Shown piece by piece: positions 2,901-23,235 of a stretch of DNA of 64,000 bases (the stretch's first letter is position 1; each line of letters begins with the position of its first letter). Below the pieces are notes generated by a model. The model was not told the DNA's origin and searched no databases. It was given only the letters and a program-made list of their open reading frames with translations. Both the position numbers and the translations under genes were made by a program. Source of the DNA: a virus; the IMG/VR virus record IMGVR_UViG_3300015050_001142, positions 1 to 64,000 of that record. The stretch is one strand, 5' to 3'.

Positions 2901-2915
2901 AGTTATTAATTTAAA

Positions 2916-3171
2916 AAGTACCAGGTAGAGAGTTTTACACTCTCATCAGTCTTTATGTCTTGGATAGGACCGTTGGTGATCTATCCCAGGATTGTACTGT
3001 ACTATGTTATACAAAAGTAAATTGCGTCACCTGAATCGAGCTACTTAAAGCACAAACGTTGTTTCCTTTACTGTATAAGTATAATTGTTCGAGTTCCACG
3101 CTGATTACAGTTGGTCTACTTATGCTACACAGCATGTTCAACTATTGCCTTACGGCGAGTACCTGGTACTT
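2916..3171 (-). ncRNA. candidate structured RNA with tRNA-like closing domain
   Basis: 12 bp terminal inverted repeat AAGTACCAGGTA/TACCTGGTACTT, with a T-arm-like hairpin GAGAG-TGTAAAA-CTCTC next to the 3' strand; no ORF. Confidence 0.55.
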
Positions 3172-5333: not shown

Positions 5334-5490
5334 ACCAATACTTAACGTTGCCAGCAACCCTAAAATCGCTTAAATTTGGAACTGGCAGATGTTTTTCCCT
5401 GCTTATTAAGTATTCCCTCTCAATCGTTTTTCTCCCTCTGAGGTTATGGGATAGATCTCCAATTGTCATGAAGACATATGATGATCAGTG

Positions 5491-5562
5491 TGATGAGACT
5501 GGGGATCGAACCCAGGACATACGCATTTGAAGTACGTTATTCTACCTCTGAATTATCTCATC
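5491..5562 (-). tRNA. tRNA with UCA anticodon (opal suppressor type)
   Basis: Full cloverleaf: GATGAGA/TCTCATC acceptor, ATTC-AGAGGTA-GAAT D arm, ACGTA-CTTCAAA-TGCGT anticodon arm, 5 nt variable loop, CTGGG-TTCGATC-CCCAG T arm, discriminator A, no encoded CCA. Confidence 0.9.
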
Positions 5563-6753: not shown

Positions 6754-7758
6754 ATGCCTGATCTAATCAAATTCGGTTCAACCGATAAAGCTGCAATACA
6801 GGATATCAAAACTAAGCTTAATGCATCAGGCAAATATGGTAAAATTGATGTAACCAATCCAGTATTTGATTTCGGTACTCTTGAAATTGTTAAACAATTC
6901 CAGAAAGATAATGGGCTTAAACCAGATGGTATTGTAGGCCCACTTACTCAAGCGAAATTGAATGCTCCAAAGAGTTGGGCAGTACCTGCAGATAAGCCGG
7001 TTAAGGCTTCTACTGATAATACACGAGTGGCTAAAGAATTGCATCCAGAAATGGCTACAAGCAATGATCAAACCGCTATTGGTAAAATATTAGCCGATGG
7101 TTTGCGTAAAGCAACACCTTTTGTGCCCAACAACGTTGGTAACTGGGCGCGAAAGAAAATGGGAATATCAACAGCCATGAATAATAATTCTATTAAGAAA
7201 ATGGATAAAGCGGCTCTTTACAAAATGGTTGATAATGCTATTAAACGTACTGGTAAATTATCAGGTACTACTGAATATGAAGATTACGAAACTACCCCTA
7301 ATGCAAAGAAAAAGATTATAGAAATTAAAAAGGGAAATCTTAATCCGTTGATTGGTGCTTATCTTGGCACTGTAGACCCAGCTTATAATATGGCTACAAC
7401 AGTAGGTAGAGGAAGTTACACTAAAGATCCTGTCACTGGTAATATTAAGTATACTGATAACTATGATTTCAAAAATAATTTTACGCAAGATTCTACTACC
7501 GGTAAATTGAAAGCCGGGTATATGAAAAATCGTGATGATTTTTATGGAATTGAACGTAGGAAACTTGCTGAAGAAGCTAACACAGAATCTCAAAGCAAAC
7601 GCCCCCCTGCACCGAACAAGATTCGTTTTGATCTATCTCCTAAAGATACAATAGGGTACCAAAAATTTCTTGATTCAAGGGGTGATATTGCTGGTTTATC
7701 ATCTAACAAATCTGCAGCGCGATCTCTTTACGATCGATATCATAAGAAGAGTAAATAA
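6754..7758 (+). CDS. peptidoglycan-binding domain protein with a virion/cargo-like C-terminal region
   Basis: N-terminal PG_binding_1-like motif (FDFGTLEIVKQFQKDNGLKPDGIVGPLT) closely matches the N-terminus of the endolysin at 23589. Confidence 0.8.
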   Translation: MPDLIKFGSTDKAAIQDIKTKLNASGKYGKIDVTNPVFDFGTLEIVKQFQKDNGLKPDGIVGPLTQAKLNAPKSWAVPADKPVKASTDNTRVAKELHPEMATSNDQTAIGKILADGLRKATPFVPNNVGNWARKKMGISTAMNNNSIKKMDKAALYKMVDNAIKRTGKLSGTTEYEDYETTPNAKKKIIEIKKGNLNPLIGAYLGTVDPAYNMATTVGRGSYTKDPVTGNIKYTDNYDFKNNFTQDSTTGKLKAGYMKNRDDFYGIERRKLAEEANTESQSKRPPAPNKIRFDLSPKDTIGYQKFLDSRGDIAGLSSNKSAARSLYDRYHKKSK

Positions 7759-7881
7759 GATGATAATCATCGATGGCATGATAATCACAAATAACCATAC
7801 GTTTAACGCTTCATAGGTTGTATGTAATTGAGCTGCCCAAAATTGTAGTGCTTCAACGCACCAATAGAACACTTTGTTCAT
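7699..7881 (-). CDS. small membrane protein
   Basis: TYEALNVWLFVII followed by a hydrophobic helix. Confidence 0.6.
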   Translation of the reverse strand: MNKVFYWCVEALQFWAAQLHTTYEALNVWLFVIIMPSMIIILFTLLMISIVKRSRCRFVR

Positions 7882-7903
7882 ATACTTGAATTTAGTAAAA
7901 AAT

Positions 7904-8256
7904 AAGATTGATTATAAGCCTCAGAAGTACGCTTCAGCCCAATGGCATCACCGTTTCGACCACGTTCTCTGATCAAGAGTTTTGTGCGGTACTTTATAAT
8001 CAATCTCTGCTCCCGGAAGAATATCACTACTCAACCGGGAATTCGTTGTGATGCGCCTACCTGCATTCACATTAAGACCGCAGGACAGTTTATGAAGATT
8101 TCTCTTCTCATGTTAGGCCGTTGTCAACGAAGGGTTTAGTAACCTCTGAAAATCACCAAGACCTAATTTAATCTCTCGATAAAAATGAGGCCAGGGTAGA
8201 AACTCCGGCCGTGATCTTTAAACGTTTGTATGGTCCTTATTTACTATCGAGGAGAT
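7904..8256 (-). ncRNA. cluster of structured intergenic elements
   Basis: 13 bp closing stem AGATTGATTATAA/TTATAATCAATCT (about 7904-8006), the repeated 30 nt hairpin at 8011-8040, and further hairpins. Confidence 0.45.
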
Positions 8257-8262
8257 AGTTAT

Positions 8263-8799
8263 TTAATGCAGTTTTGAAGCTGCAGCTGTTACTGTTTCAT
8301 TGAATCCTTGCTCACAGGTTTTAGCCATATCGAGTACTAATTCTGCTTCAGCAACCTGCTTGTTTTTAGCCAGTACCAATTCAATGGCATCATCTACCGC
8401 TGCTGTACGCTGCCCTTTCAGAATGGTCAGAGAACAACTGATGATCACATTCTGCAGGTTCATTGGGAATTGCATCAGAATACCAACAATCTCATTTTGT
8501 GCATCCTGTGGACGGCCATTGAAATCTTTGGATTTCTTGAATTCATGCAATTGACCAGCTACACTTTCCAGGTTCTTTTTGTAATCTTCAACCTGAGCTT
8601 TCAGATCATTTACATAACCATCACACACAATACTGTGACCTTCAGGTACCGGCTTCAAGTTCTGCTTAAGCTGTTTACTTGCTTTCTTTACTTCTTTTTC
8701 CAACTTGTTAATAGCTGCAGTTCTTACAACTTTCTTAGCTGATTTCTTCGGAGCCGGTAACTTCTTTACTGTTTTCTTCTTTGTTTTTGGCGTTGCCAT
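8263..8799 (-). CDS. Lys-rich N-terminus plus coiled-coil hypothetical protein (likely start 8799)
   Basis: MATPKTKKKTVKKLPAPKKSAKK...; the upstream extension of ORF 8263..9045 overlaps the next gene. Confidence 0.7.
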   Translation of the reverse strand: MATPKTKKKTVKKLPAPKKSAKKVVRTAAINKLEKEVKKASKQLKQNLKPVPEGHSIVCDGYVNDLKAQVEDYKKNLESVAGQLHEFKKSKDFNGRPQDAQNEIVGILMQFPMNLQNVIISCSLTILKGQRTAAVDDAIELVLAKNKQVAEAELVLDMAKTCEQGFNETVTAAASKLH

Positions 8800-9307
8800 T
8801 TTGTTTGGGTTGTGGTTTAGATAATTGCGTGGTACCAACATAGGTAGCCCGCGTTTCATTGTATAACTGGCCTGGATTATCGGTACCAGTAACTGATGCA
8901 TATAGGTATTTATTGCCATCAATATTTCCCATAAGAACCAGATCGATTGCCATCTCTTTGGTACGGATAACAGCACCCGGCCAGAGTGCTGTTTTATTAT
9001 CGAGGTAGACATAGCCTCTTGTGTAAACCTTTTGGTTAGGTACAACCTTGATCAATTTGCAGATGAATTGTTTCCATTTCGGAATCTTTTCAGGTACCGG
9101 CATATCAGCTTCAAACTTCATGATACGAATCTCCTGTGTTGGATCGAATGCAGTTTGCTTCTTTGGCTGTTTAAAGCGTTGGGGAGATTGTTGCTGCTTA
9201 TGATTCTTAATCATTTTATCCAGCTTACTATCTCTTTTTTCTCCAATAGCTAATCCTAACTGTTGGAGTTCTTCGGCTTCTTGTATTAAGTCTTTATCAT
9301 TACTCAT
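8735..9307 (-). CDS. hypothetical protein
   Basis: 190 aa ORF in the operon orientation. Confidence 0.65.
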   Translation of the reverse strand: MSNDKDLIQEAEELQQLGLAIGEKRDSKLDKMIKNHKQQQSPQRFKQPKKQTAFDPTQEIRIMKFEADMPVPEKIPKWKQFICKLIKVVPNQKVYTRGYVYLDNKTALWPGAVIRTKEMAIDLVLMGNIDGNKYLYASVTGTDNPGQLYNETRATYVGTTQLSKPQPKQNGNAKNKEENSKEVTGSEEIS

Positions 9308-9573
9308 GCTACTTTCCTCCCCATCTGCCGTGCGTACTTACGCTGTTTGTTTTGACTAAACATACTGTTACTCCGGCGTGATAACAGCCGATAAGGAATA
9401 GGTGCAGCACCACTCATCGATACAACCTCATGAAGTGGGCGATAAGATCCCATGTTTGATTTGTTACCTGTAAATGCAGGTGAGTTGCCTTGAGCACCGC
9501 TTCTGCGGTACCCAAAGATTCCAGCCACCATCGCAATAGCGGCAAAGAACATTTTGTTAAAACTGCGTCTCAT
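9304..9573 (-). CDS. small basic protein with N-terminal hydrophobic segment
   Basis: MFFAAIAMVAGIFG followed by an Arg/Lys-rich tail. Confidence 0.55.
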   Translation of the reverse strand: MRRSFNKMFFAAIAMVAGIFGYRRSGAQGNSPAFTGNKSNMGSYRPLHEVVSMSGAAPIPYRLLSRRSNSMFSQNKQRKYARQMGRKVA

Positions 9574-9607
9574 AGTTGGTTTAATTTAGACGGTGAAATT
9601 AATATTA

Positions 9608-10048
9608 TTACTTGAATTTTGATTCATCGATGTCAAGCTTCTTTCTACATTCTGGGCCAATACCGATAGTTAATGATAGAGCCTCAGTCAAGGATCTACC
9701 ACAATGACCGCATGTATCACTACGTAGGATCTCGATATAATCTGGTACTGCTTGCTTTTGGATTTTATCCCACATCCATCCGAATACTCTCATTGGATTA
9801 CCAAGTACCACTTCATTAGGTACATCAATACCCGATGAGAAATTACCTTCTGGGTTATTACCAGTGTAGATACTACCTAAGAAAGTTTTCTTTAAATTAT
9901 GGTGTGTAACAAACCAGGTATTATCAGAATCTTTCTTTGCTTTGATAAGATATGTAAATTGATTACCAGTTAATGTATTGTGGAATGTAACCATCGCTCT
10001 TCCAGCAAGCATATAATCCTTGGCATACTTCTGGTCTAATGCTTTCAT
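9608..10048 (-). CDS. DUF6011-like Zn-binding protein
   Basis: C-terminal CGHCGRSLT...SLTIGIGPECRKK. Confidence 0.8.
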   Translation of the reverse strand: MKALDQKYAKDYMLAGRAMVTFHNTLTGNQFTYLIKAKKDSDNTWFVTHHNLKKTFLGSIYTGNNPEGNFSSGIDVPNEVVLGNPMRVFGWMWDKIQKQAVPDYIEILRSDTCGHCGRSLTEALSLTIGIGPECRKKLDIDESKFK

Positions 10049-10392
10049 CTTTTAAGATTTTTGTGATCAAGCCATGAATCTCTCATCTCAACATAGTTAC
10101 CATCTCTCAATGGATGAAGATGAATATCGTTAGATTGAGATTTAAAACTACCTTGACTATAACATACAATATTATCTGTATGCTTATTGAGTTTATATAA
10201 TTCAATAAGTTGATAGAAAGTGAAATACGGGCCTACACCTTTGGAATTATTAAGATTACCAGGATGTAATACAAATCTCGCTTTCTTACGTCTTGTAGCA
10301 TACAAGAACATAATCATTGCAATAACAATAATACCACCAGCCAAATAAATGATTGGTAGCATACCGGGATTAATTACTTCGTTTCCGTTCAT
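10045..10392 (-). CDS. membrane-anchored hypothetical protein
   Basis: N-terminal TM helix followed by RRKK. Confidence 0.6.
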   Translation of the reverse strand: MNGNEVINPGMLPIIYLAGGIIVIAMIMFLYATRRKKARFVLHPGNLNNSKGVGPYFTFYQLIELYKLNKHTDNIVCYSQGSFKSQSNDIHLHPLRDGNYVEMRDSWLDHKNLKR

Positions 10393-10737
10393 AGAATTTC
10401 AGTTTAGGTGGTTTTAAAATAAAAAAAGTACCAGGCTTGAACTCACACCCAAGCACTGGTACATTACTATAGATTATCTCTGTGGTATTGAAACCACTTA
10501 ACCGGCCTTGAGATTGCAGGCTGTCTTTCGACTTTGCTCCAGATAACTATCACTGATTATTCTGGAAAGAGCAATATCATTCTTCGTGAATAATATATGT
10601 ATCTGCTCTTAGCTCCCGAAAGTATATCACTATACAATCGGGAATGGAAGGTCTGCCACTCAATCATTTTTCGGATAATGAATCTGACTAAGGATCTCGT
10701 CCATAGCCAGGAAGAACCCCATATGTCTTCTATTGCC

Positions 10738-11087
10738 AGTTACCTATGAACCTTGTCTCTGTTGCTAATGTAATGCATATCTTAGCTTCTCCAATTAATT
10801 CTCAATTGCATGGATAGTAAAACGTCAAGACACATCAAGACTTTAAATATTACAGTCAAGCAGTGATCAGTGTTACTAAAGAGATCGCTCCCGGAAAGAG
10901 ATTTCTCTCTAACCGGGATAGTTCAGCTTCGATCTGCCGAGGCAGTATATTCTAAGCGGAGAACTGTATGTTTAGTAAAGAGTGTGAGTAGCCTCTTACA
11001 AACTACAATACTTATCATCATTACACATTCCATGAATCACCTTTATACAGGAATTACATTCATAGCTCTCGACAAGAGATAGGTACT
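10738..11087 (-). ncRNA. candidate ~350 nt multibranch structured RNA
   Basis: Nested long-range pairings AGTACCTAT/ATAGGTAACT, CTTGTC/GACAAG, AATGTAAT/ATTACATT, TTACTAAA/TTTAGTAA; contains the repeated GNRA hairpin at 10889-10918. Confidence 0.6.
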
Positions 11088-11097
11088 GTTAAAAAAT

Positions 11098-11631
11098 TTA
11101 TGCTTCAGTGGTTGAAGCCGGCAATGAATTCAAATTACCAGTTGCCTGGTTGAGTTTCTTCTGCCACATGCTTTTCAGATCTTCTTTCTCGATGAATTGC
11201 TCGCCTTCTTTGATCAGTGCAGCCAATGCTTCGTGTGTTTCTTTCTGCAGGTTAATGCTAATACGCAGGTTAACATCGTGGTTCCAATCTTCGTAAGGAA
11301 ATCCTTCAATTGTAAAGATAGGTACACTCTTACCCTTCAATATAGGCAGACGGCTTACAGCTGCATCATAAGCTAATTTACGCTGGTATGCGCCGGCTTC
11401 CATGCAGATCAGATCTTCCAAAGGAATATTGATAGCATCCTTGTCTTTGATGTTAGCAAAACCATCACCATATTCACCATTGGTTTTCCACGGTGTTTCA
11501 GTGATTTTCTCAAGTGATGCTAATTGCTTTTTCAGGTCTTCTAATTGGGCCATAATACCATTACTGTTACCACTGCTTAAAATTTCTACTGCATCAGCAT
11601 TGCGCTGGAAATTGATCATTGTTGTTTTCAT
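11098..11631 (-). CDS. coiled-coil phage hypothetical protein directly upstream of the structured RNA
   Basis: PWKTNG...AYDAAV..L...F.IEG..YEDW..D..LRI pattern. Confidence 0.75.
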   Translation of the reverse strand: MKTTMINFQRNADAVEILSSGNSNGIMAQLEDLKKQLASLEKITETPWKTNGEYGDGFANIKDKDAINIPLEDLICMEAGAYQRKLAYDAAVSRLPILKGKSVPIFTIEGFPYEDWNHDVNLRISINLQKETHEALAALIKEGEQFIEKEDLKSMWQKKLNQATGNLNSLPASTTEA

Positions 11632-21269: not shown

Positions 21270-21733
21270 CCAGTAACAACTGGATAATACAACTGCTATT
21301 GTAATTATACAAACGAGGAGTATTATTACTTTGTAGATTGATTTCATAGCTTGAAGTTTAGTGTAAATATAATAAAGACAAGAGTACCAGATGATATCTC
21401 AGGAGCCACAACTGAGATTAGCTGATTTATATAACCTGGTACTCTTGTATTATTAGTTGGACCACCATGTGACGAGCTGTGATAAAAACCAGTACCCTCT
21501 CCTGATGGATTAGGTACTGGCATTACTATTAGTGTGCGTTGTTTTCTCTGCCCGATATGATCCACAGTGACTTATTGCTAAGTATTGGTGTAACGCTCTC
21601 CTTGGGCTAAGCAGGAGTAATAGTAGTTAGTTGTTATCGAATTCCATTGCATCATCCAACGATACTCTCACACCGTTGATGAAGATAAATCCTGCGTATC
21701 TGGTCATGAACTTTTCCATAATACTGTGGTTGT

Positions 21734-22030: not shown

Positions 22031-22615
22031 CTACGCTTTAGACTCTTCAGTAGCAGTCTCATCAACCGGTACAGTTTCTTCTTTAGGAAGGAACTCATCC
22101 ATGTTGAATGTTGTGCTGCCAAGTTCTTCAGCGCGTTGAACAGCGATGCTCGAAGGATCGAGTGTTAACAGGCTACCATTGTCTGTTGTAATCATTTCCA
22201 CTTTACCGGAGATTTCAACATTCTGTGATAACTTGTCTGCAACAGCAGATGGCAACAAGATAGCAAAGCTAAACTGTGTTGCATTCAGGTATTGACTGAA
22301 CAGCTCTGAAGCTTTATCAGTTTCACCTGCTTTCTCTGCGGCTAAGCCGTCAATGAATAACTGCTTTGTTCTGGCATTCTTCATACCAACTTCACTGTTG
22401 GCTTTGGTGTTGAAGATGATCTTCTGCAACAGTGTACCATCACCAGCAATGCTGGGAACAGGCTCACCTGCTTTGTTCTTCACGTCAACAACATTACCAT
22501 TACCCTGGATAGTAAGCAAGATGCGTTTACCAACTTGTCCTGCTAATACTAACATGCGTTTCTGCATGATTGACTTCACCGATTGGCTGGTGATTACCCT
22601 TGAATTTGTGCTCAT
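22031..22615 (-). CDS. hypothetical protein with acidic C-terminal tail
   Basis: 194 aa; first gene of the leftward block. Confidence 0.75.
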   Translation of the reverse strand: MSTNSRVITSQSVKSIMQKRMLVLAGQVGKRILLTIQGNGNVVDVKNKAGEPVPSIAGDGTLLQKIIFNTKANSEVGMKNARTKQLFIDGLAAEKAGETDKASELFSQYLNATQFSFAILLPSAVADKLSQNVEISGKVEMITTDNGSLLTLDPSSIAVQRAEELGSTTFNMDEFLPKEETVPVDETATEESKA

Positions 22616-22956
22616 TGAATTGAGGTTTATTGTGAATTAATAAGAGACGAGATAAGAAGCAATGGTTACTACGTGCAACCATTGCTTGTAATTGCTGTGA
22701 TGCTAATGCATCGATCTAAGGTTTAATATCTACTCTATCTAATGCCAATGTATTTGCGGAACGATTGCATATCCATGCATCCTGTCTACATTGGGTGAGA
22801 AGTCCTATTCGTGAAGGTATTTCTCATCAACTGTGAAGTTGACACCGGGTATTTCGATTGCAAAAGTTAGCGGGGGACTGGAAAGGGAAGTGGTTCCTCA
22901 CACCCGCGATCTCAACAAAAAATTTTAGAATATAAAAATTTTTCTATCTTCACACA

Positions 22957-23235
22957 ATGAAACTCAAAGAGCATTTCCTTTCAGTAGGATTCCGTGAAAC
23001 TTCAGTATCACATCAATTCGATGGAGATGCTTATCGCTTGGTTTACATAGGTGTAGATTCATACGGTGCTGAGTTATATAGTATTATCAATAAGCGATAT
23101 GATGAGAATGTATTCCGTGGCCGTATACCTAACGGTAAAGTATTCGATCGCTTATTCGTATTGGTACAGGAAGATTATAACATTGATAAAGAAACAATTA
23201 CCGAAATAGAAGAAATGGCTGATTTACTTGATTAA
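22957..23235 (+). CDS. hypothetical protein
   Basis: First ORF of the rightward block. Confidence 0.6.
   Translation: MKLKEHFLSVGFRETSVSHQFDGDAYRLVYIGVDSYGAELYSIINKRYDENVFRGRIPNGKVFDRLFVLVQEDYNIDKETITEIEEMADLLD

Follow-up and report, generated by a model that had tools for sequence, protein, structure and literature searches.

A repeated hairpin in gene-free gaps of an uncultured phage, a candidate RNA recognition element

We describe a small hairpin that is repeated in two gene-free gaps of an uncultured phage, within positions 7882 to 11097 of a window that covers the initial 64 kb of IMGVR_UViG_3300015050_001142, a complete virus record of 95,585 bp in IMG/VR. The portal, major capsid and large virion proteins of this phage gave crAss-type PHROG matches, and the major capsid protein is ~33% identical to those of cultured and uncultured crAss phages. 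These protein comparisons indicate that the phage is a distant member of the Crassvirales. Small genes run along the minus strand from ~22.6 kb down to 0.2 kb, and late genes occupy the plus strand from 23.5 kb. The giant open reading frame (ORF) at 58474-70173, a putative virion RNA polymerase, shows ~27-32% identity over 1,800-3,500 amino acids (aa) to its counterpart in three complete relatives. These relatives share the structural and replication genes and almost none of the small-gene arm.

Both gaps lie in the small-gene arm, where the sense strand of the surrounding genes is the minus strand. Gap 2 (10393..11097, minus, 705 nt, fold z -4.0) holds, in the direction of the genes, hairpins hp3, hp2 and a degenerate copy, hp4. 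Gap 1 (7882..8262, minus, 381 nt, fold z -2.9) holds hp1. Neither gap contains a credible ORF under code 11, under code 4 or with TAG read as Q, and recoded genes running across hp1 or hp3 were rejected, as code 4 gave only short ORFs with 1-3 TGA codons. Gap 2 is closed by an intrinsic terminator (10421..10462, minus; GUACCAG...CUGGUAC followed by U7, -17.9 kcal/mol), and at the end of gap 1, near 7900, a long helix runs into AUUUUUU. Hairpins hp3 and hp1 stand 180-220 nt past stop codons. The host-type promoter box TAnnTTTG, which precedes several late genes, was absent from both gaps. Gap 1 closes the minus-strand gene run 10392-8263, and the next solid gene, at 6754-7758, is convergent on the plus strand; it encodes 334 aa with endolysin-type PHROG matches and has a homologue in one relative (G007). 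Two minus-strand ORFs that overlap this gene, 7261-7593 and 7699-7881, are probably spurious, and the RNA carrying hp1 would therefore close a transcription unit running towards a convergent gene of lysis type.

Re-reading of the sequence confirmed three minus-strand hairpins exactly as written and placed in a first-pass annotation of this DNA. These are hp1 (8009..8040; UCCCGG-UU-GAGUA-GUGA-UAUUC-UU-CCGGGA-GC; 52.6 bits), which has one G-U pair in its inner stem, hp2 (10612..10643; UCCCGA-UU-GUAUA-GUGA-UAUAC-UU-UCGGGA-GC; 53.1 bits), in which a G-C pair of the outer stem is swapped for A-U, and hp3 (10887..10918; UCCCGG-UU-AGAGA-GAAA-UCUCU-UU-CCGGGA-GC; 51.1 bits). All three follow one design of 32 nt, with an outer stem of 6 bp, a UU/UU internal loop, an inner stem of 5 bp, a GNRA tetraloop and a trailing GC; without the GC, the 30-nt hairpins lie at 8011-8040, 10614-10643 and 10889-10918. 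The parts that stay constant are the UCCCGR/YCGGGA outer stem, the tandem U-U loop, the A-U pair that closes the GNRA loop and the GC linker. The sequence of the inner stem is free to vary and is always paired.

The same annotation had noted that the stems covary, and an alignment of the three copies bore this out, with standard pairs in all 33 pair cells. Among the 11 pairs, four are changed on both sides, one is changed on one side (G-U/A-U), six are invariant and none is broken. This level of pairing and compensation was equalled by 7 of 500 shuffles, and sliding the partner register lowered pairing to 42-67%. A degenerate pattern allowing up to two mismatches found three sites in the window, hp1-hp3, versus none in 100 dinucleotide shuffles, and hp1-hp3 are the only strong copies in the whole 95,585-bp genome. 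Descriptors free of stem sequence gave the same result: one of the form 6 bp - TT - 5 bp - N4 - 5 bp - TT - 6 bp, and a looser one with any 2x2 loop plus GNRA, each matched hp1-hp3 only in this genome and nothing in the three complete relatives.

The first-pass annotation had proposed building a covariance model as a check. Searched with cmsearch, the genome yielded hp1-hp3 and, with filters off only, the degenerate hp4 (10534..10568, minus; UCCAGA-AU-AAUCA-GUGA-UAGUU-A-UCUGGA-GC; 20.3 bits, E 0.009), 44 nt after hp2; the last third of the genome held no copy, and relatives gave none. The outer stem of hp4 (TCCAGA/TCTGGA) differs from the others yet pairs perfectly, and the GUGA loop and the trailing GC are kept. 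None of the three strong hairpins is an intrinsic terminator, in agreement with the earlier description: the stems are followed by GCAGAGAUUG, GCUAAGAGCA and GCGAUCUCUU, with no U tract, and a terminator scan was empty at hp1-hp3.

Folded alone, each of hp1-hp3 takes the drawn shape, with energies of -15.5 to -19.3 kcal/mol and z scores between -4.5 and -6.3, and hp4 folds at -8.7 kcal/mol (z -2.7). Under RNA parameters the minus-strand folds exceed their complements in stability by 3.4-7.4 kcal/mol, with -16.9 versus -9.5 kcal/mol for hp1, -15.5 versus -12.0 for hp2 and -19.3 versus -15.9 for hp3. The G-U pair of hp1 becomes an A-C mismatch when read on the plus strand, and the GNRA loops of all four copies can be read on the minus strand only. 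Because of the G-U pair, the loops and the more stable minus-strand folds, the sequence favours an RNA element in sense transcripts. This strengthens the RNA-level reading of the first-pass annotation to that extent, given that a single G-U pair is a thin basis and that the copies share ancestry.

When each gap was folded whole, the hairpins were present in both the minimum free energy and the centroid structures. The GC linkers of hp1 and hp2 run directly into another long helix. Downstream of hp1 this is a helix with a closing stem of ~14 bp that ends in AUUUUUU (7895..8006, minus), a terminator-like 3' domain, and together the hairpin and this helix, a unit of 150 nt, fold at -46 kcal/mol (z -3.3). 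Downstream of hp2 the helix is the central element of a three-hairpin unit, hp2 - central helix - hp4 (10533..10645, minus, 113 nt, -37.7 kcal/mol, z -5.4). Gap 2 also contains a two-tier hairpin with a U-U mismatch at 10680-10706 (minus; CUGGCUA-U-GGA-CGAGA-UCC-U-UAGUCAG), which is not a copy of the motif, and words resembling boxA at 10566-10573, 10877-10883 and 10976-10982 (minus).

We compared the hairpin region with a relative that is ~90% identical there, represented in public runs X2-X4 by contigs of ~1.0-1.4 kb that cover 7899-8544 and 9941-11107. The block 10643-10533, which starts with hp2 and stops one base beyond hp4, has 5 differences in 111 nt, counted block-wide, and both flanks of this block are replaced. 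Upstream of hp2 the relative joins position 10967 via 15 unrelated nt, so that a 323-nt segment carrying hp3 is missing. In gap 1 the alignment starts at 8014, within the closing GGGAGC of hp1, and continues across the terminator helix; it has 10 changes in 116 nt (7899-8014) and none listed in 7977-8014, and 195 unrelated nt replace 8015-8134. Coding stretches differ by ~10-11% between the two phages, and the blocks that start at hairpins are kept at least as well. The kept block of hp2, helix and hp4 has a fold z of -5.4, versus -0.8 for the missing segment that holds hp3. The retention of well-folded blocks next to swapped upstream sequence places the hairpins at the borders of conserved units, with exchangeable material upstream.

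The relative also bears on the choice of a partner. The first-pass annotation had put forward the product of the gene directly upstream of gap 2 (11098-11631, minus, 177 aa) as the first protein to try. In the relative this gene is replaced by unlike sequence except for its last few codons, yet hp2 is kept with the noncoding block downstream, which argues against this protein as an obligate partner. The gene is an orphan. Its product had no PHROG match, a sub-threshold Pfam match only (DUF5339, 18.1 bits, where 27.7 is required), and its Atlas model reached a pLDDT of 0.45 and had no usable neighbours. No relative of ORFs 11098-11631 and 10045-10392 was found among 5.8 billion proteins, where their 90% clusters contained this genome only. 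When ORFs 9608-10048 and 11098-11631 were used as synteny handles, no locus was found in IMG/VR.

Searches for the motif elsewhere were negative. The view that the hairpin belongs to no described family held: Rfam 15 at gathering thresholds returned a single tRNA (5491-5562) in the whole window and no family at the hairpins, and at E<=5 the region 7700-11200 gave two chance-level matches far under gathering (mir-2833, 19.7 bits against 65, and alpha_tmRNA, 14.1 bits against 50). A blastn search of 7800-11200 against 50,697 phage records found no match, and scans of IMG/VR for the exact motif and for the 23 nt after hp1 found none among the records open to the scan, from which very close ones may have been missing. 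The pattern matched 52 sites in JGI/ENA metagenome contigs, all by chance and with unpaired inner stems, and 44 in prokaryotes, for which one genome was taken from each of 185,579 species; the latter were single chance matches, none in an array. Not one of these 52 and 44 matches combines a fully paired inner stem of 5 bp with the sixth pair of the outer stem. We also collected 45 related contigs, 39 by their capsid protein (52-76% identity, including the three complete genomes) and six by a conserved neighbour protein. The hairpin covariance model had no match at E<=0.1 in the records of 25 relatives and none in the six further loci, with one weak match of 11.7 bits (E 0.4). BLAST of 7850-11150 against the 39 relatives returned only chance words of 18-27 nt. 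Public sequencing runs containing the stretch were DNA or contig runs in which it has a small share, with no RNA run listed. By these comparisons a single lineage of uncultured phage has the motif to itself.

The division into constant and free positions, the preference for the minus strand and a context that is folded, free of ORFs and closed by terminators together point to a shared RNA handle. We give about an even chance to the reading that the hairpins are a lineage-private recognition handle in modular phage noncoding RNAs, probably bound by one protein. They would then be copies of one small RNA module within noncoding RNAs from the two gaps of the small-gene arm, and one protein, of phage or host, would recognise the copies in common. 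Each conserved RNA unit (hp1 with its terminator helix, and hp2-helix-hp4) would carry the handle at its 5' edge, where it would mark or protect these RNAs, or recruit to them. We favour a recognised shape because a hairpin acting as a barrier or spacer would not need constant parts.

Several points weigh against this reading. Covariation is formally weak, since there are only three good copies and these are related by duplication. We infer transcription from position and strand alone, and action as RNA and binding by a protein are likewise inferred. No binding protein can be named, and the neighbouring ORFs have no meaningful family match, only DUFs or unnamed PHROGs. The segment around hp3 has little structure and is missing from a close relative, so some copies may have no function. 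Relatives whose marker proteins are 49-76% identical also lack the hairpin, and its function must thus be dispensable or replaced at that distance.

An element that acts in RNA processing or stability with no dedicated partner is an unlikely alternative. As a cleavage site or exonuclease barrier, the hairpin could release and protect small RNAs derived from 3' untranslated regions, or stabilise the mRNAs upstream. The distance of hp3 and hp1 past stop codons and the position at the 5' edge of well-folded units that end in terminators would suit such a role, and stable hairpins at 5' or 3' ends are classical RNA stabilisers. However, a barrier needs stability alone, which leaves unexplained why copies with fully diverged inner stems all retain the U-U loop, the GNRA loop with its closing A-U pair, and the GC linker, and 13 stacked layers are too short for a canonical RNase III site.

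Antitermination of the nut or put kind, in which the hairpin of the emerging transcript, by itself or together with Nus factors and a phage protein, would modify RNA polymerase to read through the intrinsic terminator that follows, seems to us quite unlikely. In its favour, hp3, hp2 and hp4 precede the strong 10427 terminator, beyond which lie five genes (10392-8263), and hp1 precedes the terminator-like helix near 7900. In this the hairpins resemble lambda nut and HK022 put sites, which are also few, small, located in early transcripts before terminators, and variable in sequence while structure is kept. Gap 1 does not suit this role, as the hp1 terminator is followed by no more than a doubtful ORF of 60 aa and the convergent plus-strand gene, so nothing obvious remains to be read into. 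Strong minus-strand terminators at 21488, 16978, 6629, 5193 and 775 also have no hairpin upstream. The GNRA-type loops resemble the folded boxB loop, but the loops here (GUGA, GUGA, GAAA) are tetraloops and not the GNRNA pentaloop on a short stem that defines lambda boxB. Two copies are followed by words resembling boxA, UGCUCUUU at 10573 for hp2 and CUCUUUA at 10883 for hp3, with none after hp1, and CTCTTT occurs four times in the 705 nt of gap 2 versus 42 times on the same strand of the whole genome. These words, at best candidate boxA elements, were picked post hoc, however, and one is buried in a predicted helix. Among the neighbouring proteins we found nothing resembling N, Q or NusG.

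We see a similarly low probability for a broader proposal, that the hairpin is the recognition element of a new crAss-phage system, either as a hairpin promoter of the virion RNA polymerase with +1 at the GC or as the handle of a new ribonucleoprotein. The latter version would have its function carried by the variable domains downstream.

A hairpin promoter of the coliphage N4 kind specifically is very unlikely. Here the repeats would extrude as DNA hairpins in single-stranded or supercoiled DNA and be recognised by the injected virion RNA polymerase, which would start at the invariant GC and produce short, abundant early RNAs ending at the terminators. N4-type promoters have a purine-centred 3-nt loop and a start ~11 nt from the loop centre. 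They form on 5-7 bp stems in template-strand DNA and serve a T7-like enzyme, unlike the hairpins here, which have a two-tier stem of 11 bp, a U-U loop and a GNRA loop of 4 nt and are more stable on the non-template strand. Minus-sense RNA needs the plus strand as template, where each hairpin is weaker by 3.4-7.4 kcal/mol and hp1 carries its A-C mismatch, and GNRA loops and U-U pairs are features of RNA. The virion RNA polymerase of crAss phages is a two-barrel enzyme unrelated to that of N4. In addition, the head of the small-gene arm (22616-22956) has no copy, so the hairpin cannot be a general early promoter, and early transcripts of the Cellulophaga crAss-like phage phi14:2 showed no common upstream motif (bioRxiv 10.1101/2020.03.07.982082). 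Set against these points are three strong copies that share an orientation and lie in the noncoding DNA of the small-gene, early region, with the invariant GC directly after the stem, much as N4 P1-P3 are three copies with a conserved base just after the hairpin and with constant as well as freely compensated stem positions (PMC4496689). The blocks kept in the ~90% identical relative begin at or within hairpins with no shared motif upstream, and the lack of TAnnTTTG in both gaps also fits a promoter of another kind. The phage itself carries the giant ORF 58474-70173, the putative virion RNA polymerase.

The least probable account, and one we consider highly unlikely, is a DNA-level repeat with no RNA role (a recombination hot-spot or module boundary, a mobile-element remnant or a site for a DNA-binding dimer): breakpoints in the relative do fall at 10643 (the first base of hp2), at 10533 (one base past hp4) and at 8014 inside the 3' arm of hp1, and hp3 lies within the 323-nt indel, but duplex binding or recombination needs neither compensated inner stems nor strand-specific features, none of the nearby ORFs matched an integrase, transposase or endonuclease family, the absence of copies from every other genome or contig scanned gives no sign of mobility, and the GC-skew turning point, near 20 kb, is elsewhere.

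Returning to the reading of a protein-bound RNA handle, its nearest described parallel is a pair of long early intergenic regions of phi14:2, which out-transcribe most genes from the earliest time point (bioRxiv 10.1101/2020.03.07.982082). Drobysheva et al. located these regions at g004-g005 and g005-g006, and their function is unknown (bioRxiv 10.1101/2020.03.07.982082). The two cases have in common the phage order and long, gene-free gaps on the sense strand among the small genes of one arm, and the gaps described here have the loose traits of such noncoding RNAs, being ORF-free sense-strand gaps in a phage of the Crassvirales with fold z values of -2.9 and -4.0. They differ in that there is no similarity of sequence or motif, and in that expression was demonstrated in phi14:2 and is presumed here. 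Neither this hairpin design nor any hairpin in repeated form occurs in the first 9 kb of phi14:2. The repeat is an undescribed type of hairpin, in a kind of noncoding region already known in the Crassvirales.

Other comparisons were less close. Like the sponge RNAs CsrB and RsmZ, the gaps carry several copies of one small hairpin along noncoding RNAs, which suggests repeated binding of one protein; unlike them, they have GNRA and not GGA loops and only 3-4 copies over two loci, and we know of no CsrA-type partner in the likely Bacteroidota hosts. RNA anti-CRISPRs are likewise repeat-sized (~32 nt) hairpins scattered in phage noncoding DNA, but the copies here differ in the inner stem, and a CRISPR-repeat mimic was rejected, as the scan of 185,579 prokaryote species, one genome each, gave no true match and none in an array, whereas a mimicked array fitting the scanned pattern would have shown up. 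On anatomy and on the Rfam result we also rejected group II domain 5, integron attC, SRP domain IV and Y RNA, as their bulge, conserved triplets or loops are absent.

Phages of the crAss-like group are among the most abundant known, and their early region yields abundant noncoding RNAs. To our knowledge no role of these RNAs has been explained, and the promoters of the injected RNA polymerase are undefined. A new crAss-phage recognition system, in either the promoter or the ribonucleoprotein version, would give a direct experimental grip on these RNAs. A short hairpin whose constant and free positions are so clearly set apart, and which recurs at the borders of such RNA units, is a practical bait for finding a partner. 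The weight of the finding is limited by its confinement to one uncultured lineage and by the putative nature of its expression and function.

Other structured elements were seen on the minus strand of the arm. Its gene-free head (22600-23000, ~340 nt) has a fold z of -3.8 with several long perfect hairpins and, judging from this predicted fold, may be another structured leader or noncoding RNA. A tRNA with anticodon UCA (5490-5562, minus; an opal suppressor, labelled SeC by ARAGORN) accompanies large genes that are intact under code 11. At 2915-3171 (minus) lies a domain of ~250 nt closed by a helix between its ends, AAGUACCAGGUAC ... CUACCUGGUACUU, with a U run behind it, and its GUACC...GGUAC type of stem recurs in the terminators at 10427, 16978 and 21488.

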